55,849 bases of DNA from Octopus sinensis (taxonomy: Eukaryota): the NCBI RefSeq assembly GCF_006345805.1, contig NW_021833779.1, positions 1-55,849 of the forward strand. The letters are read 5' to 3'. Within the stretch, counting starts at the first letter, position 1. Every line of letters begins with the position of its first letter. The notes under the pieces were generated by a model, which saw nothing but the letters and a program-made list of their open reading frames with translations, was not told the origin of the DNA and searched no databases. The position numbers and the translations under genes are program-made. Shown one piece after another: positions 13,444 to 55,019 of the stretch.

Positions 13444-13508
13444 TTATTTTGTATTTGTGTACTTAGTAACTGCCTTTGCACCTTCTGTAATAGCATGTTT
13501 TGCCAATT
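13444..13508 (-). pseudogene. H2B: H2B 3' fragment ([20 protein letters not shown]), 5' part deleted at the junction with LINE B1
   Basis: Matches 29905-29969. Short aatt microhomology with the B 3'UTR. Confidence 0.9.
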
Positions 13509-15932
13509 AATTTTGACGAGACGATTGCTTTGGGCATTCGAGCTCTTCCATGGTTCGTCCGCTTTGTCTGTCTATGAGCAGGGACACCTGCTATTCTCCA
13601 CGATCGATGAATAGGTCAGTTACTTTAGAGCGTTTCCGAAAAGTTCGGATAGAAGCCTCGATGGCCTGCCGTAGCTCTGGAGACTTGCTCTCCGCCCAGC
13701 TTGGGACAGGCTCCCATGGATTTAGCATATAGGCTAGTTTTAGAGCGTATCTCCGTATTTTTTCGCATTTTCGCAGAATTTTCTCATATTGTTTCGAGTA
13801 GAACCAAGCTTCCATACCATACAGTAGGCTGGGCAAGATTGTTGCATGGTATACAAATAGGAAGGTATTTGGATTCAAGTGCATGCTTCTTAGGAGTCGG
13901 AGAGCGGCGATGGCTTTCCCTTTTCTCCGTTTGAAATGCAAATGGTATCTCGAGTTTGCGTCGATTGTGAGCCCCAGGTAACGTATGCTCTCAGGGCGAG
14001 CAATTTCCACCAAAAGCCGGGTTTGCGATCTTGCGACTTTCTTGGGTTAATTTGGAGATATGCAGATTTGTCCATGGCCAGCGAGAGTCGCTTACCAATG
14101 CACCAATTCTTTATCTCCTCAATGTAGCCGGCAAGTCGTTTCTCCGAGGCATTGGTGTCCATCGAGGTGTCCAGAACGAGAACATCGTCCGCGTAGAGGA
14201 GTAGGGATGTCCTGGGATCGGAGGGTGTGGGGAAACTGCTCATTACCAAATTGAAAAAGATTGGGCTGAGACAGGACCCCTGTGGAACCCCCCTTCGGAG
14301 CGAAATATATCTTGAGAAGAAGCCCGACTCAGAGATAAAAGAGTAGCGATTTGAGAGGAAGCAGCGCATCCAGAGGAAGACTTCCGCTGTTGGCTCACAG
14401 AGTTCGATCCTTTCCAGGAGGTCTCTGTGCCAGACGCTGTCAAAAGCCTTTGAGATGTCCAGACTACAAGAGATAAAGTTTCTTTAAACTCCGTTGCTCT
14501 CGAGATGGTGGACTGTACCGTAATGAAACAGTCACCGCAGCTACGTCCAGAGCGAAAACCCCATTGCTGCGGGAGCAGCACTTTCTTCTCTTCGGCGTGG
14601 AAGTCGAGGCGCTTGGCCATAATTTTCTCCATCAGCCTTGAGATAGTTGGGATTAGGCTTATGGGACGGTAGCTGCTAGCGAGATTCACCGGTTTCGCAG
14701 GCTTTTTGATCATCCGGACCTCTGAGATTTTCCATTTTTCCGGCACATGGCCCCATTTGAGACTTGCCGTAAACAGATCCGCGAGGAACACATGTAGGTC
14801 TTCGGGTGCTTCCTTAAACAATCGCATCGGTATTTGTCATGGCCCGGTGCGTTGCCTTTTGACGAACGGATGGCCCAGGTCACCTCTGCAATGGTGATCG
14901 GGTGATGGTCCGGCGACAGTGGGCGCGGCAGTGGCTCCGACTCCCGGTTTTGCGACGTTTCCGGATTGGCCTCCTGGATAGTGGCCAGGTGTTCTGCAAA
15001 TATGTTTGGCATCTCTTGTGGCGAGGCGGGCATACCAGACTGGTTGCACAACCTCGGGGGTGAGGATTTTCCTTCGAGGTTAGCCACTTTGTGGAAACAG
15101 TCCCAGAAATTTGGGTTTCTGTAGTCCAGGTTTTGACAAGCCTTCTGCCATTCCTGGCTGCTTCCAGCTTTGTCGCGACGTGGATCTTATAACCAATTCC
15201 GAGATCATGTTCCTAAGTCTTCCCCTGTCAGCTGGGTCCACACAGCGTTTGAGTTTATTTCTCAGCCGCTTCCTTTCGTTGAGGATGATCTTCACTTTCA
15301 CGCTCAGAGTGGTCCTCCGTGCGCGGTCTGCACTTGACAATTCTCCGTACGACGTTAGATACTGAAGCATGAATTTGCTTAGCTTATCGCTTGCGGAGTC
15401 GATGTCGAGGGCTGAGTTATACCCAACAGGGCGACCGTTGTCGTGCAGGAATGCACTTATGGAGCTCCTGTAGTGTGGCCAGTTGATCTTTGAGAGATTG
15501 TAGTGAGAGGAAATGTGTTCTTGTCTAACAATGCTAGTGTGAATTTTGATCTCCATTGGTAGGTGGTCACTTCCGATATCGTCAAGGACTGTAGGCTTTT
15601 CCATAAGGTTAGCGACAGAGTGAGAACAGATGCACAGGCACAGGTTGTCCCCGCCAAAGGCGAGTGGTGGTTCGGGTCTTCGGATGTCCTGACGAAAACA
15701 CCAAGCTTGTCAGTGACCTTCTTCAGTGTTCGACCATCTTGGTTGGTTAACCGACATCCAAACGCCGTGTGCTTCGAGTTTAAGTCTCCGATAAGAAGGC
15801 AATGAGCTGTGCTTGAGAAGAATTCGTCAATCAATCTGATGCAGGGGGGGAGATATTTGCAATATTTCCACCGACCTTATCCAGAAGGAATCAGTTTTCA
15901 CCTCAAGAGAGAGGAATTCGCACACCGTGCTC
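13509..15932 (-). mobile_element. LINE B copy B1, 5'-truncated in the endonuclease, 3' tail deleted
   Basis: RT motifs (GVPQGSCLSP, YADD). Near-identical to B2-B4. Confidence 0.92.
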
Positions 15933-15952
15933 CAGAAGGAATTTGTATGTCC

Positions 15953-18444
15953 GAACGAACGAACGAAGAATTTTATTGTAAGAAAGAAGAGCGAGACAGA
16001 AAATTAGTGCGGAAGTAATTTTGACGAGACGATTGCTTTGGGCATTCGAGCTCTTCCATGGTTCGTCCGCTTTGTCTGTCTATGAGCAGGGACACCTGCT
16101 ATTCTCCACGATCGATGAATAGGTCAGTTACTTTAGAGCGTTTCCGAAAAGTTCGGATAGAAGCCTCGATGGCCTGCCGTAGCTCTGGAGACTTGCTCTC
16201 CGCCCAGCTGGGACAGGCTCCCATGGATTTAGCATATAGGCTAGTTTTAGAGCGTATCTCCGTATTTTTTCGCATTTTCGCAGAATTTTCTCATATTGTT
16301 TCGAGTAGAACCAAGCTTCCATACCATACAGTAGGCTGGGCAAGATTGTTGCATGGTATACAATAGGAAGGTATTTGGATTCAAGTGCATGCTTCTTAGG
16401 AGTCGGAGAGCGGCGATGGCTTTCCCTTTTCTCCGTTTGAAATGCAAATGGTATCTCGAGTTTGCGTCGATTGTGAGCCCCAGTAACGTATGCTCTCAGG
16501 GCGAGCAATTTCCACCAAAGAGCCGGGTTTGCGATCTTGCGACTTTCTTGGGTTAATTTGGAGATATGCAGATTTGTCCATGGCCAGCGAGAGTCGCTTA
16601 CCAATGCACCAATTCTTTATCTCCTCAATGTAGCCGGCAAGTCGTTTCTCCGAGGCATTGGTGTCCATCGAGGTGTCCAGAACGAGAACATCGTCCGCGT
16701 AGAGGAGTAGGGATGTCCTGGGATCGGAGGGTGTGGGGAAACTGCTCATTACCAAATTGAAAAAGATTGGGCTGAGACAGGACCCCTGTGGAACCCCCCT
16801 TCGGAGCGAAATATATCTTGAGAAGAAGCCCGACTCAGAGATAAAAGAGTAGCGATTTGAGAGGAAGCAGCGCATCCAGAGGAAGACTTCCGCTGTTGGC
16901 TCACAGAGTTCGATCCTTTCCAGGAGGTCTCTGTGCCAGACGCTGTCAAAAGCCTTTGAGATGTCCAGACATACAAGAGATAAGTTTCTTTAAACTCCGT
17001 TGCTCTCGAGATGGTGGACTGTACCGTAATGAAACAGTCACCGCAGCTACGTCCAGAGCGAAAACCCCATTGCTGCGGGAGCAGCACTTTCTTCTCTTCG
17101 GCGTGGAAGTCGAGGCGCTTGGCCATAATTTTCTCCATCAGCCTTGAGATAGTTGGGATTAGGCTTATGGGACGGTAGCTGCTAGCGAGAGATTCACCGG
17201 TTTCGCAGGCTTTTTGATCATCCGGACCTCTGAGATTTTCCATTTTTCCGGCACATGGCCCCATTTGAGACTTGCCGTAAACAGATCCGCGAGGAACACA
17301 TGTAGGTCTTCGGGTGCTTCCTTAAACAATCGCATCGGTATTTTGTCATGGCCCGGTGCGTTGCCTTTTGACGAACGGATGGCCCAGGTCACCTCTGCAA
17401 TGGTGATCGGGTGATGGTCCGGCGACAGTGGGCGCGGCAGTGGCTCCGACTCCCGGTTTTGCGACGTTTCCGGATTGGCCTCCTGGATAGTGGCCAGGTG
17501 TTCTGCAAATATGTTTGGCATCTCTTGTGGCGAGGCGGGCATACCAGACTGGTTGCACAACTCGGGGGTGAGGATTTTCCTTCGAGGTTAGCCACTTTGT
17601 GGAAACAGTCCCAGAAATTTGGGTTTCTGTAGTCCAGGTTTTGACAAGCCTTCTGCCATTTCCTGGCTGCTTCCAGCTTTGTCGCGACGTGGATCTTATA
17701 ACCAATTTCCGAGATCATGTTCCTAAGTCTTCCCCTGTCAGCTGGGTCCACACAGCGTTTGAGTTTATTTCTCAGCCGCTTCTTTCGTTGAGGATGATCT
17801 TCACTTTCACGCTCAGAGTGGTCCTCCGTGCGCGGTCTGCACTTGACAATTCTCCGTACGACGTTAGATACTGAAGCATGAATTTGCTTAGCTTATCGCT
17901 TGCGGAGTCGATGTCGAGGGCTGAGTTATACCCAACAGGGCGACCGTTGTCGTGCAGGAATGCACTTATGGAGCTCCTGTAGTGTGGCCAGTTGATCTTT
18001 GAGAGATTGTAGTGAGAGGAAATGTGTTCTTGTCTAACAATGCTAGTGTGAATTTTGATCTCCATTGGTAGGTGGTCACTTCCGATATCGTCAAGGACTG
18101 TAGGCTTTTCCATAAGGTTAGCGACAGAGTGAGAACAGATGCACAGGCACAGGTTGTCCCCGCCAAAGGGCGAGTGGTGGTTCGGGTCTTCGGATGTCCT
18201 GACGAAAACACCAAGCTTGTCAGTGACCTTCTTCAGTGTTCGACCATCTTGGTTGGTTAACCGACATCCAAACGCCGTGTGCTTCGAGTTTAAGTCTCCG
18301 ATAAGAAGGCAATGAGCTGTGCTTGAGAAGAATTCGTCAATCAATCTGATGCAGGGGGGGAGATATTTGCAATATATTCCACCGACCTTTATCCAGAAGG
18401 AATCAGTTTTCACCTCAAGAGAGAGGAATTCGCACACCGTGCTC
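15953..18444 (-). mobile_element. LINE B copy B2, 5'-truncated, AATAAA + (TTCG)n tail
   Basis: Flanked by atttgtatgtcc at 15941-15952 and 18453-18464. Confidence 0.92.
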
Positions 18445-18464
18445 CAGAAGGAATTTGTATGTCC

Positions 18465-20947
18465 GAACGAACGAACGAAGAATTTTATTGTAAGAAAGAA
18501 GAGCGAGACAGAAAATTAGTGCGGAAAGTAATTTTGACGAGACGATTGCTTTGGGCATTCGAGCTCTTCCATGGTTCGTCCGCTTTGTCTGTCTATGAGC
18601 AGGGACACCTGCTATTCTCCACGATCGATGAATAGGTCAGTTACTTTAGAGCGTTTCCGAAAAGTTCGGATAGAAGCCTCGATGGCCTGCCGTAGCTCTG
18701 GAGACTTGCTCTCCGCCCAGCTTGGGACAGGCTCCCATGGATTTAGCATATAGGCTAGTTTTAGAGCGTATCTCCGTATTTTTTCGCATTTTCGCAGAAT
18801 TTTTTCATATTGTTTCGAGTAGAACCAAGCTTCCATACCATACAGTAGGCTGGGCAAGATTGTTGCATGGTATACAAATAGGAAGGTATTTGGATTCAAG
18901 TGCATGTCTTAGGAGTCGGAGAGCGGCGATGGCTTTCCCTTTTCTCCGTTTGAAATGCAATGGTATCTCGAGTTTGCGTCGATTGTGAGCCCCAGGTAAC
19001 GTATGCTCTCAGGGCGAGCAATTTCCACCAGAGAGCCGGGTTTGCGATCTTGCGACTTTCTTGGGTTAATTTGGAGATATGCAGATTTGTCCATGGCCAG
19101 CGAGAGTCGCTTACCAATGCACCAATTCTTTATCTCCTCAATGTAGCCGGCAAGTCGTTTCTCCGAGGCATTGGTGTCCATCGAGGTGTCCAGAACGAGA
19201 ACATCGTCCGCGTAGAGGAGTAGGGATGTCCTGGGATCGGAGGGTGTGGGGAAACTGCTCATTACCAAATTGAAAAAGATTGGGCTGAGACAGGACCCCT
19301 GCGGAATCCCCCTTCGGAGCGAAATATATCTTGAGAAGAAGCCCGACTCAGAGATAAAAGAGTAGCGATTTGAGAGGAAGCAGCGCATCCAGAGGAAGAC
19401 TTCCGCTGTTGGCTCACAGAGTTCGATCCTTTCCAGGAGGTCTCTGTGCCAGACGCTGTCAAAAGCCTTTGAGATGTCCAGACATACAAGAGATAAAGTT
19501 TCTTTAAACTCCGTTGCTCGAGAGATGGTGGACTGTACCGTAATGAAACAGTCACCGCAGCTACGTCCAGAGCGAAAACCCCATTGCGCGGGAGCAGCAC
19601 TTTCTTCTCTTCGGCGTGGAAGTCGAGGCGCTTGGCCATAATTTTCTCCATCAGCCTTGAGATAGTTGGGATTAGGCTTATGGGACGGTAGCTGCTAGCG
19701 AGATTCACCGGTTTCGCAGGCTTTTTGATCATCCGGACCTCTGAGATTTTCCATTTTTTCGGCACATGGCCCCATTTGAGACTTGCCGTAAACAGATCCG
19801 CGAGGAACACATGTAGGTCTTCGGGTGCTTCCTTAAACAAATCGCATCGGTATTTTGTCATGGCCCGGTGCGTTGCCTTTTGACGAACGGATGGCCCAGT
19901 CACCTCTGCAATGGTGATCGGGTGATGGTCCGGCGACAGTGGGCGCGGCAGTGGCTCCGACTCCCGGTTTTGCGACGTTTCCGGATTGGCTCCTGGATAG
20001 TGGCCAGGTGTTCTGCAAAATATGTTTGGCATCTCTTGTGGCGAGGCGGGCATACCAGACTGGTTTGCACAACTCGGGGGTGAGGATTTTCCTTCGAGGT
20101 TAGCCACTTTGTGGAAACAGTCCCAGAAATTTGGGTTTCTGTAGTCCAGGTTTTGACAAGCCTTCTGCCATTTCCTGGCTGCTTCCAGCTTTGTCGCGAC
20201 GTGGATCTTATAACCAATTCCGAGATCATGTTCCTAAGTCTTCCCCTGTCAGCTGGGTCCACACAGCGTTTGAGTTTATTTCTCAGCCGCTTCCTTTCGT
20301 TGAGGATGATCTTCACTTTCACGCTCAGAGTGGTCCTCCGTGCGCGGTCTGCACTTGACAATTTCCGTACGACGTTAGATACTGAAGCATGAATTTGCTT
20401 AGCTATCGCTTGCGGAGTCGATGTCGAGGGCTGAGTTATACAACAGGGCGACCGTTGTCGTGCAGGAATGCACTTATGAGCTCCTGTAGTGTGGCCAGTT
20501 GATCTTTGAGAGATTGTAGTGAGAGGAAATGTGTTCTTGTCTAACAATGCTAGTGTGAATTTTGATCTCCATTGGTAGGTGGTCACTTCCGATATCGTCA
20601 AGGACTGTAGGCTTTTCCATAAGGTTAGCGACAGAGTGAGAACAGATGCACAGGCACAGGTTGTCCCCGCCAAAGGGCGAGTGGTGGTTCGGGTCTTCGG
20701 ATGTCCTGACGAAAACACCAAGCTTGTCAGTGACCTTCTTCAGTGTTCGACCATCTTGGTTGGTAACCGACATCCAAACGCCGTGTGCTTCGAGTTTAAG
20801 TCTCCGATAAGAAGGCAATGAGCTGTGCTTGAGAAGAATTCGTCAATCAATCTGATGCAGGGGGGGAGATATTTGCAATATATTCACCGACCTTTATCCG
20901 AAGGAATCAGTTTCACCTCAAGAGAGAGGAATTCGCACACCGTGCTC
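18465..20947 (-). mobile_element. LINE B copy B3, same truncation point as B1 and B2
   Basis: Flanked by atttgtatgtcc at 18453-18464 and 20956-20967. The repeat period is about 2.51 kb. Confidence 0.92.
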
Positions 20948-21114
20948 CAGAAGGAATTTGTATGTCCGAACGAACACGAAGAAGAATTTTATTGTAAGAA
21001 AGAAGAGCGAGACAGAAAATTAGTGCGGAAAGTAATTTTGACGAGACGATTGCTTGGGCATTCGAGCTCTTCCATGGTTCGTCCGCTTTGTCTGTCTATG
21101 AGCAGGGACACCTG

Positions 21115-23712
21115 CTATTCTCCACGATCGATGAATAGGTCAGTTACTTTAGAGCGTTTCCGAAAAGTTCGGATAGAAGCCTCGATGGCCTGCCGTAGCT
21201 CTGGAGACTTGCTCTCCGCCCAGCTTGGGACAGGCTCCCATGGATTTAGCATATAGGCTAGTTTTAGAGCGTATCTCCGTATTTTTTCGCATTTTCGCAG
21301 AATTTTCTCATATTGTTTCGAGTAGAACCAAGCTTCCATACCATACAGTAGGCTGGGCAAGATTGTTGCATGGTATACAAATAGGAAGGTATTTGGATTC
21401 AAGTGCATGCTTCTTAGGAGTCGGAGAGCGGCGATGGCTTTCCCTTTTCTCCGTTTGAAATGCAAATGGTATCTCGAGTTTGCGTCGATTGTGAGCCCCA
21501 GGTAACGTATGCTCTCAGGGCGAGCAATTTCCACCAGAGGCCGGGTTTGCGATCTTGCGACTTTCTTGGGGTAATTTGGAGATATGCAGATTTGTCCATG
21601 GCCAGCGAGAGTCGCTTACCAATGCACCAATTCTTATCTCCTCAATGTAGCCGGCAAGTCGTTTCTCCGAGGCATTGGTGTCCATCGAGGTGTCCAGAAC
21701 GAGAACATCGTCCGCGTAGAGGAGTAGGGATGTCCTGGGATCGGAGGGTGTGGGGAAACTGCTCATTACCAAATTGAAAAAGATTGGGCTGAGACAGGAC
21801 CCTGCGGAATCCCCCTTCGGAGCGAAATATCTTGAGAAGAAGCCCGACTCAGAGATAAAAGAGTAGCGATTTGAGAGGAAGCAGCGCATCCAGAGGAAGA
21901 CTTCCGCTGTTGGCTCACAGAGTTCGATCCTTTCCAGGAGGTCTCTGTGCCAGACGCTGTCAAAAGCCTTTGAGATGTCCAGACATACAAGAGATAAAGT
22001 TTCTTTAAACTCCGTTGCTCTCGAGATGGTGGACTGTACCGTAATGAAACAGTCACCGCAGCTACGTCCAGAGCGAAAACCCCATTGCTGCGGGAGCAGC
22101 ACTTTCTTCTCTTCGGCGTGGAAGTCGAGGCGCTTGGCCATAATTTTCTCCATCAGCCTTGAGATAGTTGGGATTAGGCTTATGGGACGGTAGCTGCTAG
22201 CGAGATTCACCGGTTTCGCAGGCTTTTTGATCATCCGGACCTCTGAGATTTTCCATTTTTCCGGCACATGGCCCCATTTGAGACTTGCCGTAAACAGATC
22301 CGCGAGGAACACATGTAGGTCTTCGGGTGCTTCCTTAAACAATCGCATCGGTATTTTGTCATGGCCCGGTGCGTTGCCTTTTGACGAACGGATGGCCCAG
22401 GTCACCTCTGCAATGGTGATCGGGTGATGGTCCGCGACAGTGGGCGCGGCAGTGGCTCCGACTCCCGGTTTTGCGACGTTTCCGGATTGGCCTCCTGGAT
22501 AGTGGCCAGGTGTTCTGCAAATATGTTTGGCATCTCTTGTGGCGAGGCGGGCATACCAGACTGGTTGCACAACCTCGGGGGTGAGGATTTTCCTTCGAGG
22601 TTAGCCACTTTGTGGAAACAGTCCCAGAAATTTGGTTTCTGTAGTCCAGGTTTTGACAAGCCTTCTGCCATTTCCTGGCTGCTTCCAGCTTTGTCGCGAC
22701 GTGGATCTTATAACCAATTCCGAGATCATGTTCCTAAGTCTTCCCCTGTCAGCTGGGTCCACACAGCGTTTGAGTTTATTTCTCAGCCGCTTCCTTTCGT
22801 TGAGGATGATCTTCACTTTCACGCTCAGAGTGGTCCTCCGTGCGCGGTCTGCACTTGACAATTCTCCGTACGACGTTAGATACTGAAGCATGAATTTGCT
22901 TAGCTTATCGCTTGCGGAGTCGATGTCGAGGGCTGAGTTATACCCAACAGGGCGACCGTTGTCGTGCAGGAATGCACTTATGGAGCTCCTGTAGTGTGGC
23001 CAGTTGATCTTTGAGAGATTGTAGTGAGAGGAAATGTGTTCTTGTCTAACAATGCTAGTGTGAATTTTGATCTCCATTGGTAGGTGGTCACTTCCGATAT
23101 CGTCAAGGACTGTAGGCTTTCCATAAGGTTAGCGACAGAGTGAGAACAGATGCACAGGCACAGGTTGTCCCCGCCAAAGGGGAGTGAGTGGTGGTTCGGG
23201 TCTTCGGATGTCCTGACGAAAACACCAAGCTTGTCAGTGACCTTCTTCAGTGTTCGACCATCTTGGTTGGTTAACCGACATCCAAACGCCGTGTGCTTCG
23301 AGTTTAAGTCTCCGATAAGAAGGCAATGAGCTGTGCTTGAGAAGAATTCGTCAATCAATCTGATGCAGGGGGGGAGATATTTGCAATATATTCCACCGAC
23401 CTTTATCCAAAAGGAATCAGTTTTCATCTCAAGAGAGAGGAATTCGCACACCGTGCTCTCGATGATGGTGAGGTTACGGATTTGGAGGTTTTCGGCGTAG
23501 AAGATGCTCGAGCCAGTCCCTGGCGTAGAGCAGCTTCCCCATTTTAGATCCTCTGACCGGTAGCCCGGAAGTTCGTACGAGTGGTTTTCTTTGAGCTTAG
23601 ACTCGTTGACGACAATAATGTCTGGATGGCCGCTGTTTACCATCTCAACGAAGTCCTGGTGCCGTCTCTTGATAGATCGGGCATTCACAGCTATGATTTT
23701 GACTGGGGCTAT
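21115..23712 (-). CDS. LINE B ORF2 (APE + RT), fragmented by indels; no AUG at the expected start
   Basis: IIAVNARS, VNESK, IGDLNSKH, GSDHLP, LDISKAFDSV, YADD. Confidence 0.88.
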
Positions 23713-24990
23713 GTTGCTGGCGTGCTCCCCTCTAATAGGAGCCGTTGCAGCACCTCAGGTTCCACACCAAGTTTGGTTAGAGCTCCCACACAACGATGAA
23801 AGAATTCCATAAGGGAGTCTCTGTTGTGCAGGTCTTCGTCCGAGAGGGCACCTCTTTGCGATGAGATATTGTCTGGAGGGGTGTTTGTCTTCTTGCGAGC
23901 AGCAGCCGTGCGGCCAGCTCTGGTACTGGAACAAGTGTCAGCCGTCGGCTTCGGGTCGAGTTTAAAATCAAAGTCGGAGTCCGCCGATGTCTGAATGCAG
24001 ACATCAGTCTTGATCGGATTCACAACTGGCCTCTTTGTCCAGATCGACTCTGTGCGTTCGGCTTTCACCCAGCGAGCTGGGTTGCTGGCCGGCGGATTTC
24101 TCACAGCCCGTAAGGCTGCAGACGCGGCTTTGGCGAATGGGCATCCACCGTAACATGCCCAGTGTCCAGGACTGTTGCAGTTTATGCAGGTCTTGACAGC
24201 AGGGTCATTTGGTCTGGGGTCTGAGTTCGGACACACTATTGTGTCGGTGTTCGCCACAGACCAAGCAACGAACTTTTTCGGTGCACTTATGGGACGTGTG
24301 TCCAAATTGGTGACACCGAAAGCATCTGACTGCCGGGGGCTTGTGCCATTCACATCGGATATGGCTGAAGCCCGCAGTTATTCCAAAGCGGATGAGGGTG
24401 TTGGCCTCTGCTCTGGAATCCAGGGTGAGTCTGCCGACAGGCATGTCTGTTCCATTGCGAGAGAATCTTTCGAACTTGAAGTCCGATTCTAGACTTTCTC
24501 TCAAGTGGAGGTTAAGATCCTCTGTCGAGATCCAATGAGGGATTCCTTTAAGGATCAAGACTGAGGCCTTCTCAGCTATTGAGGCAAGTTTATGGCCGCC
24601 TTCGCCAAACATATTCGATTGAGTCAGCTCTGCTTTGAACGCAGCAGCATCCTCGGGCGATCTGAATTTTAGAATGAAGGTGCCGGACTTCTGCAAAGTT
24701 ATCCGAGCTTGGAGAGGCAGTTAGCGACTTGGATAGGAGGTTAAACCTCTTGATCTTTCCAAGCGTCGGGTTTTCAATACTCAAGGAATATGTGAGGGTC
24801 TCATGGGGTGGGTCTCACTCTGTTTTTGGGGCCCAGTAGGCTTCGGCAGTTCTGTGGGATCCTCAGCTTTGATTGGTTCACAAAAGGGCTGTGGCTTTGC
24901 CGCTGTTCGTCTTTGAGCTTTGGCGCAAGCTTTGATTGATGAGAGATTTTGATTATTCTTGACCATTTTTTCTTTCTTTTCCTTGACCAT
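23709..24990 (-). CDS. LINE B ORF1 (gag-like, CCHC knuckles), fragmented by indels
   Basis: Collinear with the intact ORF at 46452-47753. CFRCHQFGHTSHKC and CINCNSPGHWACYGGC knuckles. Confidence 0.87.
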
Positions 24991-25050
24991 GATATTCAAT
25001 CCGATATTCAATCCGATATTCAATCCGATATTCAATCCGATATTCAATCC
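24991..25050. repeat. 5 x 12-bp perfect tandem repeat (gatattcaatcc) directly 5' of the B4 ORF1 ATG
   Basis: Five exact units counted in the sequence. Confidence 0.97.
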
Positions 25051-25076
25051 TGTATAATTTATCCACCAAATCCGTA
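25051..25076 (-). other. 26-nt exact copy of the H4 3' end (YGFGG-stop + 8 nt of UTR) inside the B4 TSD
   Basis: tgtataatttatccaccaaatccgta = 479-504. Confidence 0.93.
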
Positions 25077-25106
25077 TTTGTATGTCCTTGGAGAAAAAAC
25101 ATTATA
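25076..25106 (-). promoter_or_regulatory. Residual H2B 5' leader/TATA-like segment, the insertion site of B4 and A4
   Basis: atttgtatgtccttggagaaaaaacattata versus atttgtatgttccggaggggaaaaacattata at 30276-30307, upstream of H2B. Confidence 0.8.
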
Positions 25107-31122: not shown

Positions 31123-31361
31123 ATTATTTGAATAATGCACTGTTATTTTGTAATATTGTTTTCGAAATACAATAGATCAACCAGTTAAGTTTTTTTAACG
31201 AATTTCAAAAAAATTTCAAACACAATCAACGAATAAACATTTAGAAGTAATTTAGATAAAATATCGCAATACTGTGTTATTTTATCATTGGCGGAATATT
31301 TTTTTAGTCCAATATAATTTATTTACTTAGGCTAAATTATCCAAAAAATAGTAAATATATA

Positions 31362-32836
31362 CAGTGAACAAAAATAAAAACTGAAAAAGCATTTTCTCAT
31401 GAATTTACTATGAAACAATATTTAAAAAATAACTTCTATTGATTTAAAAAAATTAAATAAAGTTTTGCTGTATTTTTAGTTTGTCTAAAAAATATATATT
31501 TATACAGTTTCCATTCATTCATAATTCAGAACCCAAAAAATGAACAAATTTATTTAATATCTATTATGTCCTCCATTAGCTCTAATTTACATCTAGTATT
31601 CGGCCTGGCATGCTATTAATAAGACTTTTTGCGTATTCTATTTTGAGTTAATTCCAAATGGATGATATTTTTGCAAATAATGTTCCTTTTTCAAAAATTC
31701 TCTTCCTTTGATTTTTTCTTTAATAAAGGCCCAAACATTCTCTATAGGGTTTAAATCTGGGCTTTGTGTTGGCCATAGTAGTAATTCGATATTATTTACT
31801 TGAAAAAAGCTCTTTGCTATTGCCGAAGTATGTTTCAGATCATTGTCTTGTTGGAAACTAGGATCTTTATGTTCGATTTTGTTTTGTCAGAAATGAGATC
31901 ATATTATTCGTAATATGTTAACATACAAAGCTCCACCAATCTTCTCTTTTATCAAAACCAAATTAATGAATCCAATATTGATTATGGCATGATAGTTCAT
32001 GATAGTTCCTTTACCGAATTTTATTGTTTTTGTAAGATTGCTTGTTAAATATTTTTCCTTGCGATTTCTCCATACTAAAGTTCTTACATCATATTTTACA
32101 TATTAAATTTACTTTCATCACTTAAAATAACTCGCTCCCGAAATATTTTGAGAGCATATTGCATGTTTGGCATAGCTTTAATCATTGAAGTTTAGGGTTT
32201 TGGTAAGAAGTGGTCTTTCGTGGGCGGATATGCATTCAGACCAATTTTTCGTGGTATTTCTTATTGTTTGAGCTGTTACTGATTTCCTTTTTTTCTGTAA
32301 ATGTTTTTAGTAAATTAAAAACAGTTGAAATTGACATCCACTTTTCAAGCCTCTTTAATTTAAATATTTTTGACGATTGAGCAACGAATGGTCAACCAGA
32401 CCCAACTTTTTTGTCCGTCAAGCACTTATTTGAATAGCTTTTGATAATTTGCAATATCGTGCCAAGCATACTTTTTCGTGATATCTTGTATTTCTCTGTA
32501 TGTTTTCCAGATTTTATGCATGCCATTATTCTGCCTTTTTCTTCAAATGTTCAATGATTGGCTATGTAGAGAGGTTACAATTGATTGATTTGAACGAATT
32601 TTAAAAAATATAACCTTTTTTTGATATATATATAAGTAATTTAAATTTGTTCAGTATTTTTTTGGTTTTAAATTTTCGATATCATAAAAAAAGGGCATAA
32701 ATATATATTTATTAAAAAAAACTAAAAAATGTAAAATACTTTAATCTATGTTAAAAATAAATTTGAGACATATTGCAATATTGTCCAATTGTAAATTTAT
32801 AAGAAAGAGCATGTTCAGTTTTTATTTTGTTCACTA
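31362..32836 (-). mobile_element. Tc1-like transposon (decayed), fixed in the unit
   Basis: Copy of 49743-51226. Confidence 0.88.
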
Positions 32837-33061
32837 TAGCTTGTTCATGGTTATAGGTTTTTGTTGTTTTCCTGCTATATATAATTATCCAAGAAATCCC
32901 GTATTAAACAATTTTAATTATATATTTTTAAAATACACAACTAGTATCCTCTTTTTATCTAAACGAGGTGCAACATTACATTTTCTACAAACTTCAACAA
33001 AAAATTTAAAAATTGTCTCAGAATTATCCAAACAATAAATCATTTTTTATTTAAAATACAA

Positions 33062-36505: not shown

Positions 36506-36692
36506 ATTTTTGTTATTTCAGACAGAACCGATTCAGACAAGTTATTTTTGTTTTATATTATTCCGAATTTTTAAACAACGTTATGGAATGGAATGGAAAG
36601 TGGAGTGAAAAAATCTCATATAATAAAAAAGTATCATTCCGAAATTTTGTTGAGTAATTCAAAAAAAGTATAATTCCAAAATTTTTGAAGTT

Positions 36693-38326: not shown

Positions 38327-38575
38327 CTTTAAATTAATTATTTGAATAATGCACTGTTATTTTGTAATATTGTTTTCGAAATACAATAGATCAACCAGTT
38401 AAGTTTTTTTAACGAATTTCAAAAAAATTTCAAACACAATCAACGAATAACATTTAGAAGTAATTATAGATAAAATATCGCAATACTGTGTTATTTTATC
38501 ATTGGCGAAATATTTTTTTAGTCCAATATAATTTATTTACTTAGGCTAAATTATCCCAAAAAATAGTAAATATTA

Positions 38576-40059
38576 CAGTGAACAAAAATAAAAACTGAAA
38601 AAGCATTTTCTCATGAATTTACTATGAACAATATTTAAAAATAACTTCTATTGATTTAAAAAAATTAAATAAAGTTTTGCTGTATTTTTTAGTTTGTCTA
38701 AAAATATTATATTTATACAGTTTTTCCATTCATTCATAATTCAGAACCAAAAAATGAACAAATTATTTTATCTATTATGTCCTCCATTAGCTCTAATTAA
38801 CATCTAGTATCGGCCTGGCATGCTATAATAAGACTTTTTGCGTATTCTATTTTGAGTTAATTCCAAATGGATGATATTTTTGCAAATAAATGTTCCTTTT
38901 TCAAAAATTCTCTTCCTTTGATTTTTTCTTTAATAAAGGCCCAAACATTCTCTATAGGGTTTAAATCTGGGCTTTGTGTTGGCCATAGTAGTAATTCGAT
39001 ATTATTTACTTGAAAAAAGCTCTTTGCTATTGCCGAAGTATGTTTCAGATCATTGTCTTGTTGGAAACTAGGATCTTTATGTTCGATTTTGTTCAGAAAT
39101 GAGATCATATTATTCGTTAATATGTTAACATACAAAGCTCCACCAATCTTCTCTTTATCAAAACCAAATTAATGAATCCAATATTGATTATGGCATGATA
39201 GTTCATGATAGTTCCTTTACCGAATTTTATGTTTTTTTGTAAGATTGCTTGTTAAATATTTTTCCTTGCGATTTCTCCATACTAAAGTTCTTACATCACT
39301 ATTTTACATATTAAATTTACTTTCATCACTTAAAATAACTCGCTCCCGAAATATTTTGAGAGCATATTGCATGTTTGGCATAGCTTTAATCATTGAAGTT
39401 TAGGGTTTTTGGTAAGAAGTGGTCTTTTCGTGGGCGGATATGCATTCAGACCAATTTTTTCGTGTATTTCTTATTGTTTGAGCTGTTACTGATTTCCCCT
39501 TTTTTCTGTAAATGTTTTAGTAAATTAAAAACAGTTGAAAATTGACATCCACTTTTCAAGCCTCTTTATTTAAAATATTTTTGGACGATTGAGCAACGAA
39601 TGGTCAACCAGACCCAACTTTTTTGTCCGTCAAGCACTTATTTGAATAGCTTTTGATAATTTGCAATATCGTGCCAAGCATACTTTTTCGTGATATCTTG
39701 TATTTCTCTGTATGTTTTTCCAGATTTATACATCCAATTATTCTGCCTTTTTCTTCAAATGTTCAATGATTGGCTATGTAGAGAGGTTACAATTGATTGA
39801 ATTTGAACGAATTTTTAAAAAATATATAACCTTTTTTTGATATATATATAAGTAATTTAAATTTGTTCAGTATTTTTTTGGTTTTAAATTTCGATATCAT
39901 AAAAAAGGGCATAATATATATTTATAAAAAAAAACTAAAAAATAAAAAAATGTAAAATACTTTAATCTATGTTTAAAATAAATTTGAGACATATTTGCAA
40001 TTTGTCCAATTGTAAATTTATAAGAAAGAGCATGTTCAGTTTTTTATTTTTGTTCACTA
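38576..40059 (-). mobile_element. Tc1-like transposon (decayed)
   Basis: Terminal repeats plus FQQDNDLKHTS and WPTQSPDLNPIENVW. Confidence 0.88.
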
Positions 40060-40286
40060 TAGCTTGTTCATGGTTATAGGTTTTTGTTTGTTTTCCTGCT
40101 ATATATTAATTATCCAAGAAATCCGTATTAAACAATTTTTAATTATATATTTTCTAAATACACAACTAGTATCCTCTTTTTATCTAAACGAGGTGCAACA
40201 TTACATTTTCTACAAACTTCAACAAAAAATTTAAAAATGTCTCAGAATTATCCAAACAATAAATCATTTTTTATTTAAAATACAAA

Positions 40287-46118: not shown

Positions 46119-46206
46119 CAAATTGTGAAACAGAATTGCGAGCAGATTGTTTCCTTGGAAATTTTGCTCCAGTAGATTTTTGAGCAGTTTGTTGTGTTCT
46201 AGCCAT
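46119..46206 (-). pseudogene. H3: Decayed H3 N-terminal fragment
   Basis: Copy of 54833-54921. Confidence 0.8.
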
Positions 46207-46303
46207 ATTTTTGTTATTTCAGACAGAACCGATTCAGACAAGTTATTTTTGTTTTATATTATTCCGAATTTTTAAACAACGTTATGGAATGGAATGGAAA
46301 GTG

Positions 46304-47759
46304 AATGAATGAATGAAGTTTATTGTAATTAACAGAGAAAGAGAAAGTGACAGGAATTAAGGACGGTGATAGGACGAGACTGATGCAAAGGCAACTGAAC
46401 TCTTCTGAGCTTGCGTCCAATTCATCTGTCGTGAGCCAGAGTTAATGGTGGCTATGTTGCTGAATTGCTCCCTTCTAGCAGGAGCTCTTGCAGCATATCC
46501 ATATCCACTCCAAGTAGGGTCAGGGCTCCTACACAACAGCGGAAGCATTCCAGTTGGGAATCTCTGTTGTGTAGGTCCTGATCCGAGTGGGGACCTCTTT
46601 GTGACAAAGCTTTGTCACTGTGGGTTTTTCTCCTCTTACGAGGGACAGCCGAGCGGACCACTTCTGAGTTATGGCACTCATTAGTGGTTGTCTTCGAGTT
46701 TGTGAGTGTGCTGGGGGCCGGCGACGTCTGAGTAGAGACATCGACTTTGGACGGACTTCGGGGAGCCGCTTTTGTCCAGACTGATTTTATCGGTTCGGCT
46801 TTCACCCAGCGTACTGGGCTTTTTGTCTGTGGGCTCTTCGCAGCCCTTGAGGCTGCTGTTGCTGCTTTGGCAGATGGACATCCACCGTAGCACGCCAAGT
46901 GCCCAGTGTTCTTGCAATTAATGCAAGTTTTTGCAGCTGGGACATTCGGTTTTGGCTTGGAACTCGGGCAGTTTTGGTGCCTGTGTTCTTTACCGCAGAG
47001 GAGACAACGGAGTTTTTCGGAGCATCTGTAGGACGTATGTCCAAACTGATTGCAACGGAAGCATCTCGTTGCTGAGGGCTTGTGCCATTCGCAGCGGATA
47101 TGGCTGAAGCCCGCAGTTATTCCAAAGCGGATGAGGGTGTTGGCCTCGGCTCTGGAATCCAGCGTGAGTCTGCCGATAGGCATGTCGGTTCCATTGCGAG
47201 AGAATCTTTCGAACTTGAAGTCCGATTCTAGACTTTCTCTCAAGTGGAGGTTAAGATCCTCTGTCGAGATCCAATGAGGGATTCCTTTAAGGACCAAGAC
47301 TGAGGCCTTCTCAGCTATTGAGGCAAGTTTATGGCCGCCTTCGCCAAACATATTCGATTGAGTCAACTCTGCTTTGAACGCAGCAGCATCCTCTGGCGAA
47401 CTGAATTTTAGAATGAAGGTGCCGGACTTCTGTAAGGTTATCCGGGCTTTCGAAGCAGTTGGAGACTTGGATAGGAGGTTAAACCTCTTAATCTTTCCAA
47501 GTGCCGAGTTTTCGATACTCAGAGAATATGTGAGGTTCGAGCTGTTACCCTCAGTTGTCGTCTGATGCAATTGGGTCTCACTGTGTTTTTGAGCCACAGT
47601 AGGGTTCGGAGGGGTCGGATGTTCGGTGGGATATTCAGGTTCGCAAAAGGGCTGTGGCTTGGCCGCTGTTCGTCTTTGAACTTTGGAGCAAGCTTTGATT
47701 GATGCGAGATTTTGTTTATTCTTGACCATTTTTTCTTTATTTTCCTTTACCATGCAACT
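46304..47759 (-). mobile_element. Non-autonomous ORF1-only LINE (B') with a 7-bp TSD and a (TTCA)n tail
   Basis: TSD gaaagtg at 46297-46303 and 47760-47766. The empty site is visible at about 36596 and 55012. ORF1 is followed directly by a B/C-like 3'UTR, AATAAA and the tail. Confidence 0.92.
46452..47753 (-). CDS. Intact B' ORF1, 433 aa from the ATG at 47753, three CCHC knuckles
   Basis: Uninterrupted ORF. The longer start in the ORF track lies outside the TSD, in the promoter. Confidence 0.9.
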   Translation of the reverse strand: MVKENKEKMVKNKQNLASIKACSKVQRRTAAKPQPFCEPEYPTEHPTPPNPTVAQKHSETQLHQTTTEGNSSNLTYSLSIENSALGKIKRFNLLSKSPTASKARITLQKSGTFILKFSSPEDAAAFKAELTQSNMFGEGGHKLASIAEKASVLVLKGIPHWISTEDLNLHLRESLESDFKFERFSRNGTDMPIGRLTLDSRAEANTLIRFGITAGFSHIRCEWHKPSATRCFRCNQFGHTSYRCSEKLRCLLCGKEHRHQNCPSSKPKPNVPAAKTCINCKNTGHLACYGGCPSAKAATAASRAAKSPQTKSPVRWVKAEPIKSVWTKAAPRSPSKVDVSTQTSPAPSTLTNSKTTTNECHNSEVVRSAVPRKRRKTHSDKALSQRGPHSDQDLHNRDSQLECFRCCVGALTLLGVDMDMLQELLLEGSNSAT

Positions 47760-48667
47760 GAAAGTGGAGTGAAAAAATCTCATATAATAAAAAAGTATCA
47801 TTCCGAAATTTTGTTGAGTAATTCAAAAAAAGTATAATTCCAAAATTTTTGAAGTTGACGGGATGACCCTTTTCCCATTTGAGAAAGGAAAAGGCCTCGT
47901 ATGGCATGCAAGCTGCTGGGATACTTTCTCTGCTTCACATCTAACCTCGTGTGCTCTGGAGGCTAAATCAGCTGCTAAAAAGCCTGAAGATTTAAAGCTT
48001 TCCAAATATTCTGCCCTTTTGGAATAAAATATCAAGAGGAATTCTGCAAGGGGACTCTTTGTCTCCACAGCTATTTGTTTTGGTGATGGATACTTTGAGT
48101 AGGATGTATTAATGTTTTAGTTATTATAACACATTCCGTGGGAACATAAACAAAGTTATAATCCCACACGTGTCACAAGCGAAACAATCTTCTGGACCAT
48201 CCTTGTCCATGCCCTTCTGTTGCGGGCGAGATCCCGTAAAGATTCTAGGTCGTCCCAGTTTTTGAAACTTTTGCCATGAAGTTTGAGATCCCTTTCAAGA
48301 ACTGTCGGAAGAGTGGATCTAGGTCTTCCACGATATTTGTCTCCATGTTCAAGAAATAATCGTCCATTGCCCGATTGGCCGGAGCTCTGGGGTCCACTCG
48401 CAAATAATTCTCTAAATAAACATAATTATAAACAGATGCAAAAAAATAAAATATTAGAAAAAAATAAATTTTTCAACGATATAACTCTAATTTACTGTAT
48501 AAATATACTTTTTGTTATTTCAACAAGATTTCTTACCAATTAAAAAAGCAATCGTAGTATTTCACCGTCGTTTGGTAGCTAGTTAGTATATTTATGAAAT
48601 TGCTAATTTTTATCTGGTTAATTTGTAAGGAATATCAATGTATTTTATTAAAAAAATTATGTATAAT

Positions 48668-48976
48668 TTATCCACCAAATCCGTAAATTGTCCTACCTTG
48701 ACGTTTCAAGGCATTAACAACGTCCATTGCGATAACAGTTTTTCTTTTGGCATGTTCAGTATAGGAAATACAATCACGAACAGTTTGCTCAATAAAAATC
48801 TTAAGGACAGAACGTGTCTCCTCGTAAATTTTTCCAGAAATTCTTCGAACACCCCCTCTTCGACATAGTCTTCTTATTGCTGGCTTAGTAATTCCTTGTA
48901 TATTGTCAATTAATATCTTTCGAAATCGTTTTGCACCACTCTTTCCTCCTTTGCCACCTTTACCACGTCCAGACAT
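48668..48976 (-). CDS. H4: Histone H4
   Basis: Intact 102-aa ORF. Confidence 0.98.
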
Positions 48977-49131: not shown

Positions 49132-49491
49132 ATGTCTTCAAGAGGAAAAGGAGGAAAAGTACGGTCAAAGGCTAAAAGCAAATCCGTTCGGGCCGGGTTA
49201 CAGTTTCCAGTTGGACGCATTCACCGGTGTCTCCGTCATGAAACCCGAATGCGAGTAGGAATTCCTGCCGCAGTATATATGTGCGCAGTATTGGAATATG
49301 CTGTGGCTGAAATGCTTGAACTTGCTGGAAATACAGCAGTAAAATGTGGAAAAAGAAGAATTAAACCACGTCACATTGTCGTTGCAATTGGAAATGACGA
49401 CGAATTAAAAGAATTAACTCAGAAAGCTATTATTTCATCTGGTGGATTTATGATTCGCAAAACTGCAGAAACTCCTAAACCAACTTCCTAA
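49132..49491 (+). CDS. H2A: Histone H2A
   Basis: Intact 119-aa ORF. Confidence 0.97.
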
Positions 49492-49742
49492 CTTTAAATT
49501 AATTATTTGAATAATGCACTGTTATTTTGTAATATTGTTTTCGAAATACAATAGATCAACCAGTTAAGTTTTTTTAACGAATTTCAAAAAAATTTCAAAC
49601 ACAATCAACGAATAAACATTTAGAAGTAATTATAGATAAAATATCGCAATACTGTGTTATTTTATCATTGGCGAAATATTTTTTTAGTCCAATATAATTT
49701 ATTTACTTAGGCTAAATTATCCCAAAAAATAGTAAATATATA

Positions 49743-51226
49743 CAGTGAACAAAAATAAAAACTGAAAAAGCATTTTCTCATGAATTTACTATGAAACAAT
49801 ATTTAAAAAATAACTTCTATTGATTTAAAAAAATTAAATAAAGTTTTGCTGTATTTTTTAGTTTGTCTAAAAAATATTATATTTATACAGTTTTCCATTC
49901 ATTCATAATTCAGAACCCAAAAAATGAACAAATTTATTTAATATCTATTATGTCCTCCATTAGCTCTAATTACATCTAGTATTCGGCCTGGCATGCTAAT
50001 AATAAGACTTTTTGCGTATTCTATTTTGAGTTAATTCCAAATGGATGATATTTTTGCAAATAAATGTTCCTTTTTCAAAAATTCTCTTCCTTTGATTTTT
50101 TCTTTAATAAAGGCCCAAACATTCTCTATAGGGTTTAAATCTGGGCTTTGTGTTGGCCATAGTAGTAATTCGATATTATTTACTTGAAAAAAGCTCTTTG
50201 CTATTGCCGAAGTATGTTTCAGATCATTGTCTTGTTGGAAACTAGGATCTTTATGTTCGATTTTGTTCAGAAATGAGATCATATTATTCGTTAATATGTT
50301 AACATACAAAGCTCCACCAATCTTCTCTTTTATCAAAACCAAATTAATGAATCCAATATTGATTATGGCATGATAGTTCATGATAGTTCCTTTACCGAAT
50401 TTTATTGTTTTTGTAAGATTGCTTGTTAAATATTTTTCCTTGCGATTTCTCCATACTAAAGTTCTTACATCACTATTTTACATATTAAATTTACTTTCAT
50501 CACTTAAAATAACTCGCTCCCGAAATATTTTGAGAGCATATTGCATGTTTGGCATAGCTTTAATCATTGAAGTTTAGGGTTTTTGGTAAGAAGTGGTCTT
50601 TTCGTGGGCGGATATGCATTCAGACCAATTTTTTCGTGGTATTTCTTATTGTTTGAGCTGTTACTGATTTCCCTTTTTTTCTGTAAATGTTTTAGTAAAT
50701 TAAAAACAGTTGAAATTGACATCCACTTTTCAAGCCTCTTTAATTTAAAATATTTTTGACGATTGAGCAACGAATGGTCAACCAGACCCAACTTTTTTGT
50801 CCGTCAAGCACTTATTTGAATAGCTTTTGATAATTTGCAATATCGTGCCAAGCATACTTTTTCGTGATATCTTGTATTTCTCTGTATGTTTTTCCAGATT
50901 TATACATGCCAATTATTCTGCCTTTTTCTTCAAATGTTCAATGATTGGCTATGTAGAGAGGTTACAATTGATTGAATTTGAACGAATTTTAAAAAATATA
51001 ACCTTTTTTTGATATATATATAAGTAATTTAAATTTGTTCAGTATTTTTTTGGTTTTAAATTTTCGATATCATAAAAAAGGGCATAAATATATATTTATT
51101 AAAAAAAACTAAAAAAATGTAAAATACTTTAATCTATGTTAAAAATAAATTTGAGACATATTTGCAATATTGTCCAATTGTAAATTTATAAGAAAGAGCA
51201 TGTTCAGTTTTTATTTTTGTTCACTA
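49743..51226 (-). mobile_element. Tc1/mariner-like DNA transposon (about 1.48 kb), transposase decayed
   Basis: TA-flanked imperfect terminal repeats of about 65 bp (CAGTGAACAAAAATAAAAACTGAA). DDE motifs FQQDN and SPDLNPIENVW at 50031-50381. Confidence 0.9.
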
Positions 51227-51455
51227 TAGCTTGTTCATGGTTATAGGTTTTTGTTTGTTTTCCTGCTATATATTAATTATCCAAGAAATCCGTATTAAAC
51301 AATTTTTAATTATATATTTTCTAAAATACACAACTAGTATCCTCTTTTTATCTAAACGAGGTGCAACATTACATTTTCTACAAACTTCAACAAAAAATTT
51401 AAAAATTGTCTCAGAATTATCCAAACAATAAATCATTTTTTATTTAAAATACAAA

Positions 51456-51866
51456 TTATGTTTTTTCACCTCGAATTCTTCTCGATAAATGCATATCGTT
51501 TGGCATTATAGTTACTCTTTTTCCGTGAATTGCGCACAAATTACTATCTTCAAAAATTCCAACTAGGTAACTCTCTGCCGCTTCTTGGAGAGCGACAATC
51601 GCTGACGATTGAAAACGCAAATCAGTTTTGATAAACTGAGCGGTTTCTCTCACGAGTCTCTGGAATGGAAGTTTTCGTAGTAACAAATCAGTGCTCTTTT
51701 GATATCGTCTAATTTCTCGCATTGCAACAACTCCAGGTCGAAATCGATGAGGTTTCTTTACCCCTCCAAATTGTGAAACAGACTTGCGAGCAGATTTTGC
51801 AGACAATTGTTTCCTTGGAACTTTTGCTCCAGTAGATTTTCGAGCAGTTTGTTTAGTTCTAGCCAT
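51456..51866 (-). CDS. H3: Histone H3 (intact, 136 aa)
   Basis: [12 protein letters not shown]...KKPHRFRPG...LPFQRLVRE...[10 protein letters not shown]. Confidence 0.98.
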
Positions 51867-52387: not shown

Positions 52388-52753
52388 TTATTTTGTATTC
52401 GTGTACTTAGTAACTGCCTTTGCACCCTCTGTAATAGCATGTTTTGCCAATTCACCGGGAAGAATCAGACGAACTGCAGTCTGTATTTCACGTGAGGTAA
52501 TGGTAGCCTTCGAATTCTGATAGACTAGATTTGATGCCTCGGTTTTTATTTTGTCATAAACATCAAATGTGAAACTGTCCATAGCCATCATAGCCTTCTT
52601 TGACATCCCAAGTTGATTATGTACTGTCTTTAAAATTTTCATAAGATATATGGAAAAAGTTTTCCTTTTCTTTTTTTTCTTTGTAGCAACAGAAACATTT
52701 TTGCTTTTTATAGGAGCTCTTTTTTGTCCCTTTGTGCTAACTTTAGGTGCCAT
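52388..52753 (-). CDS. H2B: Histone H2B (intact, 121 aa from MAPKV)
   Basis: [42 protein letters not shown]. The true ATG is at 52753. Confidence 0.97.
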
Positions 52754-54921: not shown

Positions 54922-55019
54922 ATTTTTGTTATTTCAGACAGAACCGATTCAGACAAGTTATTTTTGTTTTATATTATTCCGAATTTTTAAACAACGTTAT
55001 GGAATGGAATGGAAAGTGG

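Follow-up and report, generated by a model that had tools for sequence, protein, structure and literature searches.

The window, that is, the whole 55,849-nt stretch of DNA analysed here, is made up of histone repeats (H4, H2A, a Tc1-like element, H3 and H2B) crowded with LINEs of families A, B and C. The core histones at 48668-48976, 49132-49491, 51456-51866 and 52388-52753 are intact but strongly divergent. The Tc1/mariner-like element (49741-51230, also 31360-32840 and 38574-40063) has imperfect inverted ends of ~200 bp and is a fixed part of the histone repeat unit, lying between H2A and H3. At 13505-23706 the B ORF2 region occurs four times head to tail, as 2.5-kb copies of ~99% identity; the 3' end is cut and joined to an H2B 3' end. 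A 12-nt repeat, present five times at 24991-25050, forms the 5' end of B and is also found at the head of other B copies and of one B2 copy (L027, L028 and L018).

One of the three equivalent histone-repeat units of the window is occupied by an additional insertion, designated element E, for which the following features were recorded.

46304..47759, minus strand: element E, an ORF1-only non-autonomous LINE copy of 1456 bp, one copy of a multi-copy family
46297..46303: target-site duplication (TSD) on the 3' side of E, GAAAGTG on the plus strand, single in two empty units
47760..47766: TSD on the 5' side of E, GAAAGTG
47754..47759, minus strand: remnant of the 5' leader of E (full leader ~20 nt; longer in other full-length copies)
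46452..47753, minus strand: ORF1 of E, 433 aa, predicted type I layout (RRM plus CCHC)
46442..46451, minus strand: deletion junction of E, ORF1 stop joined to a B2-type 3'UTR (TAT microhomology in the Eb subfamily)
46304..46443, minus strand: 3'UTR common to E and the autonomous family B2 (137/140)
46319..46324 and 46304..46317, minus strand: AATAAA and TTCA tail, within the 3'UTR of E
36596..36602: empty equivalent site 1, one GAAAGTG
55012..55018: empty equivalent site 2, one GAAAGTG
46119..46259, minus strand: decayed copy of a histone H3 5' region, its ATG 97 nt downstream of E in the same orientation
23707..25095, minus strand: ORF1 region of family B, 78% identical to E and not its closest relative

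The ORF1 frame runs from 47753 to 46452 on the minus strand with no break over its 433 aa, and at the 3' end of E the AATAAA is followed by TTCATTCATTCATT with its (TTCA)3 tail. No ORF for a reverse transcriptase (RT) or an endonuclease was found inside E. Compared with other full-length copies, the window copy is short of ~13-15 nt of the 5' leader of the family. In a control for TSD calls chance matches of 4-9 nt were common, so that a 7-nt repeat alone lies within chance; the GAAAGTG pair around E was nevertheless taken as a real TSD because both empty sister units carry a single copy of it. Thus, the initial annotation was right in describing a 1456-bp element with a 7-bp TSD in one of three equivalent units, with an uninterrupted 433-aa ORF1 diverged from that of B, no ORF2 and a (TTCA)3 tail.

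E is a multi-copy family

A DNA search of its own genome, in which 40 of 181 candidates were scored, returned at least 51 matches to E. The exact junction between the ORF1 stop and the 3'UTR, which the initial annotation had proposed to count, was present in 24 copies, compared to none for a control pattern and to 12 copies of the B2-type ORF1/ORF2 junction in the same genome. Three of the 24 duplicate a site already counted, so that the distinct 3' sites number 21; eight of the 24 copies are full-length and 16 are 5'-truncated at varied points. An additional full-length copy (L007) is one base off the junction pattern, and ORF1 is uninterrupted in five of the nine full-length copies so obtained. 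Identity to the window copy ranges from 92 to 100%, with two subfamilies, Ea and Eb. Besides the 7 bp at the window, TSDs measured 13 bp in L078 and 12 bp in L079/L087; L080 has one of 14 bp situated beyond the tail, and one of 12 bp surrounds the tandem pair L074/L007. None beyond the control range was detected in the 16 truncated copies. The distinct sites, varied truncation and TSDs on several full-length copies only are those of amplification after the deletion. Therefore, E is a real, recently mobile ORF1-only family, amplified by retrotransposition, and its non-autonomous nature as annotated was upheld.

It is extremely improbable that E is a defunct deletion product whose copies arose through segmental duplication, turnover of the histone arrays or redundancy of the assembly. 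Such an origin would fit the three duplicated sites, the truncated copies devoid of TSDs and two other deletion forms (B2b and D type) that share flanks or breakpoints and look duplicated, but it is largely refuted by full-length copies that have one junction in common and yet carry different TSDs, and the 21 different 3' flanks, the many truncation points, the empty sister units and the 92-100% identity also speak against it.

Some individual copies deserve description. At L041:5987-8931 two full E copies lie head to tail, with a 12-bp repeat at each side and between them. In L079 and L087, which are inserted at a TCAGTT motif 30 nt before an H3 ATG, the leader at the 5' end is preceded by a ~30-nt piece of the E interior (positions 919-948), as a template jump would leave it. 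Two E-like ORF1 fragments in inverted arrangement (L128:1582-2308 and 6308-7047), both with an internal deletion of approximately positions 382-626, adjoin H3 upstream sequence. L017 was considered as a second ORF1-only family and rejected, as it extends into the start of ORF2 and a tandem repeat cuts it. No publication on the E family was found in a search that covered few subscription journals.

Origin of E and its candidate helper

The initial annotation had credited E with its own diverged 3'UTR. This was rejected, since the 3'UTR matches that of B2, a family absent from the window and present elsewhere in the genome, at 137 of 140 nt, compared to 93 for B and 97 for C. Between E and B2, ORF1 is 84-88% identical overall and mostly 94-99% in the core, and the 3'UTR 96-98%; between E and the B ORF1 of the window the identity is 78% overall and 97-99% over E positions 414-613. 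B and C were thus rejected as parents of E on the 3'UTR and on the 3' half of ORF1. In the B2-type layout the ORF1 stop is followed by CCACTAT and then by ORF2, and TAT precedes the E-retained stretch in a B2-type 3'UTR; Eb copies join both parts at TAT. From these structures, E looks like the result of a single internal deletion of the ~2.6-kb ORF2 in a B2-type LINE. No near-identical full-length parent was found among the scored candidates of lower-bound searches (40 of 181 and 39 of 253), so that a single copy next to such a parent, the one-off deletion against which the initial annotation had cautioned, is not what this assembly contains.

From the shared 3'UTR and the absent ORF2 we infer that E is mobilised in trans by the ORF2p of a partner. 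The proposal that E is a parasite of the B/C RT would hold as regards dependence on a foreign ORF2, but by the 3'UTR match the helper is likely the B2 enzyme, rather than that of B or C of the window. B may be an extra helper because it has an uninterrupted 881-aa ORF2 (L186) and some target sites in common. Among six B2 loci checked, none had both ORFs intact, and long-read indels may explain some of the breaks: a single in-frame stop interrupts L178 and each of the duplicates L031 and L185, L032 and L184 are broken, and L183 retains an uninterrupted ORF2 stretch of 815 aa but is 5'-truncated.

In a FastTree analysis of 122 RT rows, built without named references (Jockey included), the B2 RT fell outside the group of CR1-like rows, on a long branch placed weakly (84-93) near RNase H-bearing rows; neither an RNase H nor a C-terminal CCHC was found in the ORF2 of B2 or B. 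A conserved structure of the E 3'UTR received no support (consensus -1.45 kcal/mol from five sequences, one of them poorly aligned).

Further internal-deletion forms of the same LINE group were seen at L179-L182 and in the B2b copies on C11711 and C8744, with deletions of ORF2 from ~890 to 2196 and from 1363 to 2517, seemingly multiplied by segmental duplication. B2b, whose ORF1 is frameshifted, was rejected as a complementary ORF2-only partner, given the 1363 to 2517 deletion in ORF2 and the flanks shared by its copies. The D-type copies without RT were rejected as another mobile family, as both flanks were common to four out of four; at the 10 D-type junction loci ORF1 is 67-82% alike to that of E where long enough to judge. 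B2-type 3' ends at L059, L060 and L063 carry an unexplained insertion of ~1150 bp near the ORF2 end.

The ORF1 protein

Three domains were assigned within ORF1 of E.

47319..47531, minus strand: predicted first RRM-like domain (~aa 75-145; pLDDT 94, tandem-RRM Foldseek matches; modelled within a larger fragment)
47076..47306, minus strand: predicted second RRM (~aa 150-226; TDP-43 RRM1 with Z 11.2 and rmsd 1.7 over 75 residues)
46878..47063, minus strand: three CCHC zinc knuckles (aa 231-292), from sequence

The AlphaFold2 model of aa 72-308 had a pLDDT of 94 and its best Foldseek matches were tandem RRMs (E 4e-7, TM ~0.27). A HMMER search with the ORF1 core gave 3667 relatives at E up to 0.001, and in an alignment of the E core with 99 of the 150 relatives listed (100 rows) the knuckle Cys/His residues were at least 90% conserved at 11 of 12 positions. 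Pfam assigned no family to E ORF1; PRE_C2HC was matched in 44 of the 100 aligned rows, E itself not being among them, and no L1 ORF1 Pfam family was present among these relatives. A word-based search returned a single relative, labelled Octopus sinensis (87%), and the Atlas matches were arthropod hypothetical, zf-CCHC and PRE_C2HC clusters at 0.91-0.93. An RRM followed by CCHC is described as the type I ORF1 of the I, Jockey, R1, Tad1, plant L1 and L2 clades (PMC4120745), and E ORF1 models as a type I protein with two RRMs plus three CCHC knuckles, as in the Jockey clade.

Selection on ORF1 and proposed exchange of ORF1 segments

The comparison with B ORF1 envisaged in the initial annotation gave a dN/dS of 0.16 for the core (aa 79-300) and of 0.30 for ORF1 as a whole. 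In the comparison with two B2 copies the core gave 0.15-0.17, the C-terminal part 1.6-2.3 and the whole ORF1 0.64-0.70; in 14 E-E pairs the core gave 0.08-0.54. Variants were counted in 21 of 26 E copies, leaving out L087, L094, L095, L096 and L007 as duplicates or partners; L106 was kept outside the dN/dS, indel, variant and seven-copy tree sets and was included in the 18-copy E tree. Core variants common to several copies and E-only, meaning absent from the sampled autonomous elements, were six synonymous and three nonsynonymous (p=0.007 vs. site counts), compared to 22 and 46, respectively, for variants private to single copies; with the private variants as baseline, p=0.053. All six ORF1 stops were private to single copies (p=0.29), the indels common to independent copies were in frame, and the variant counts revealed no constraint on the ORF1 termini.

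By their 5' part the seven full-length E ORF1s grouped as a single clade (100/99), and by their 3' part they did so weakly (82/92), with the middle not resolved, and in the 18-copy tree the ORF1 3' part did not resolve as one clade. The 5' part of B ORF1 grouped with B2 (96/96) and its 3' part was distant. In L106 an ORF1 of E type leads into the start of a B2 ORF2; L106 pairs with the E copy L088 (97/96), and the 5' flank/junction is common to both. In run X2, from a different study, a 938-nt contig carrying L079-specific alleles has two differences in 902 nt with respect to L079 ORF1 (99.8%) and continues into the ORF2 start. Depth in X2 was 36-55 on ORF1 and 2-17 over most of ORF2, and the E 3'UTR was uncovered in the runs examined, including X3; the contig may be an ORF2-linked twin of L079 or an assembly chimera. 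Because ORF1 segments move between lineages, the low core dN/dS of E could be partly inherited from autonomous donors, and the signs of selection on E's own ORF1 are suggestive only.

These mosaics (the two parts of B, L106 with the 5' junction of an E copy yet an ORF2 start, and the X2 contig), together with many shared core variants that also occur in autonomous copies (eight synonymous, four nonsynonymous), agree with an ORF1 that is a passenger of a real non-autonomous family, unneeded in cis, whose low dN/dS comes from ORF2-linked donors via recombination. Such a passenger role is unlikely, as the shared E-only core variants lean synonymous (6:3), independent copies have no stop in common and share only in-frame indels, and none of 15 matches to the E leader is joined straight to the 3'UTR; moreover, the X2 contig may be a chimera, judging from its depth. 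In TRE5-A, tagged elements are reported to retain 0.5% activity without ORF1 and 12% with an ORF1 stop, and ORF1 to act with cis preference (PMC3159450). With this precedent and the low core dN/dS, the earlier suggestion that ORF1p is needed in cis is plausible, but it is confounded by ORF1 exchange.

Insertion sites

At four of the 21 E sites an H3-type ATG follows 30-97 nt downstream, and two of these four insertions share one position. The share expected near H3 starts would be 0.1-0.35% per insertion, even when the calculation is confined to the 5.5 Mb of contigs that carry E (p at most 9e-7). The H3-start pattern has 48 matches in the assembly, 47 of them off the large contigs, and H3, H2A and H2B starts are also adjoined by B2-type 3' ends. 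The other 17 sites are away from H3 starts, several at two other recurring motifs. In the 3' flanks of L076, L093, L091, L036 and L037, E and B copies lie just before a dispersed repeat beginning GGGTATTTGTCAATTTAT, and L078, L086 and L088 are inserted before GAACTTGCAAA; sites of these two types are possible further preferred targets.

The initial annotation had seen in the retained insertion preference a hint that ORF1p serves targeting. As E has no endonuclease, the histone-start bias that it shares does not implicate ORF1p, and the argument is left unsupported because elements mobilised in trans inherit the preference of the helper's endonuclease and 17 of 21 sites lie elsewhere; the helper endonuclease could explain the bias as well as ORF1p. 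It is very unlikely that ORF1p is a targeting factor steering E, and perhaps its helper, to histone-gene promoters in the manner of the HeT-A Gag, described as targeting chromosome ends (PMC2173066), or of TRE5-A ORF1p, described as contacting TFIIIB (PMC5911963). The excess upstream of H3 and the B2-type ends at three histone starts are in line with those precedents, but half of the H3 sites are one position, the preference cannot separate ORF1p from ORF2p, and the model shows RNA-binding folds only.

The host of E

Roughly every fifth residue of the window's H4 departs from the canonical sequence (~80% identity). Window-type H4 occurs only on small contigs, and an 81%-identical, canonical-like type mostly on the very large contigs C2-C30, where none of the at least 51 E matches was located. 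E was present in some sequencing runs of two organism labels and next to absent in others, with no RNA run listed among those containing it, and H3 matches of 98-100% came from the octopus-labelled set only, followed by one at 93% and then by others at ~80%. The divergent histones of the unplaced contigs suggest that a second organism was sequenced together with the main genome, and this organism is likely the host of E.

Comparison with known ORF1-only elements

HeT-A, HAL1 and Ag-Sponge are classed as ORF1-present bipartite non-autonomous LINEs (Kojima, 2018; PMC5786205). E is likewise bipartite, an autonomous LINE reduced to its 5' and 3' parts, which meet just after the ORF1 stop, and combines an intact ORF1p, in five of nine full-length copies, with the lack of ORF2p.

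The layout of TRE5-A.2 of Dictyostelium discoideum is given as AB-ORF1-BC, with mobilisation in trans, and the element resembles E in a large ORF2 deletion with ORF1 and the 3' end kept (PMC3159450). The TRE5 family is also reported to insert near a multicopy gene class, as E does near H3; unlike E, TRE5 elements are described as L1-type and as using a narrow window upstream of tRNA genes via ORF1p-TFIIIB contacts (PMC5911963). E has a putative type I RRM-CCHC ORF1, a TTCA tail and a partial H3-start bias (4/21) instead of strict position-specific insertion near one gene class.

HAL1 of mammals is presented as an ORF1p-only derivative of an autonomous LINE with dispersed copies, like E (PMC5753468, PMC5786205). 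Unlike E, it comes from the L1 clade and has a type II ORF1 described as coiled coil, RRM and CTD (PMC4120745), whereas in E the predicted RRMs are followed by three CCHC knuckles.

HeT-A and other Drosophila telomeric elements share with E the ORF1-only state and a Gag-like protein with CCHC knuckles (PMC2173066; bioRxiv 10.1101/2025.06.09.658640), and HeT-A is stated to depend on the ORF2 of another family, as proposed here for E (bioRxiv 10.1101/2025.06.09.658640). Unlike HeT-A, which is confined to chromosome ends, E occupies internal sites with flanking DNA on both sides, makes TSDs, and has a 148-nt 3'UTR and no evident host role. Ag-Sponge of Anopheles is another ORF1-present bipartite non-autonomous LINE (PMC5786205), but it belongs to the CR1 clade, and the B2 RT lies outside the CR1-like group. 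Thus, E works like TRE5-A.2 and HAL1 and shows the testable features of the general class, and it stands outside those named families.

Proposed explanation

Structure, copy number, junction, shared 3'UTR and the TSDs on several full-length copies were all observed directly for E. In the reading that we favour, with a probability of roughly 0.78, E is a LINE derivative, present in multiple copies, that has its ORF1 stop joined to the B2 3'UTR and likely borrows the B2 endonuclease/RT and likely coats its own RNA with its own ORF1p. The family would have been founded by one ~2.6-kb deletion of ORF2 at the TAT microhomology; E RNA would then be translated into the two-RRM, three-knuckle ORF1p and bound by it in cis, and the shared 3'UTR would be recognised by B2 ORF2p, with reverse transcription primed at the nick giving rise to the TTCA tail, the TSDs and the 5' truncations. 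The partial histone-start bias, common to E and B2, would have its simplest source in the helper machinery, and ORF1 segments would occasionally pass by recombination between E and its ORF2-linked relatives.

A broader reading, which we regard as unlikely, would make E a non-telomeric ORF1-only LINE of the I/Jockey-type side, where such elements are reportedly telomere-only, and a lasting lineage of the histone arrays that trades ORF1 modules with several autonomous families and whose ORF1p helps to steer E and its helpers to histone starts.

The ORF1-only design is already known from flies, mammals and slime moulds, and the surprise is limited because it is established. E nonetheless provides a clean example, an ORF1-only LINE that is neither telomeric nor of the L1 or CR1 clade, whose junction is defined, whose partner family can be identified and whose copies number about two dozen. 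The mosaic nature of its ORF1 warns that the dN/dS of elements of this kind may stem from autonomous donors, and the small size of the family makes it suitable for asking if ORF1p is retained for packaging in cis or for targeting.
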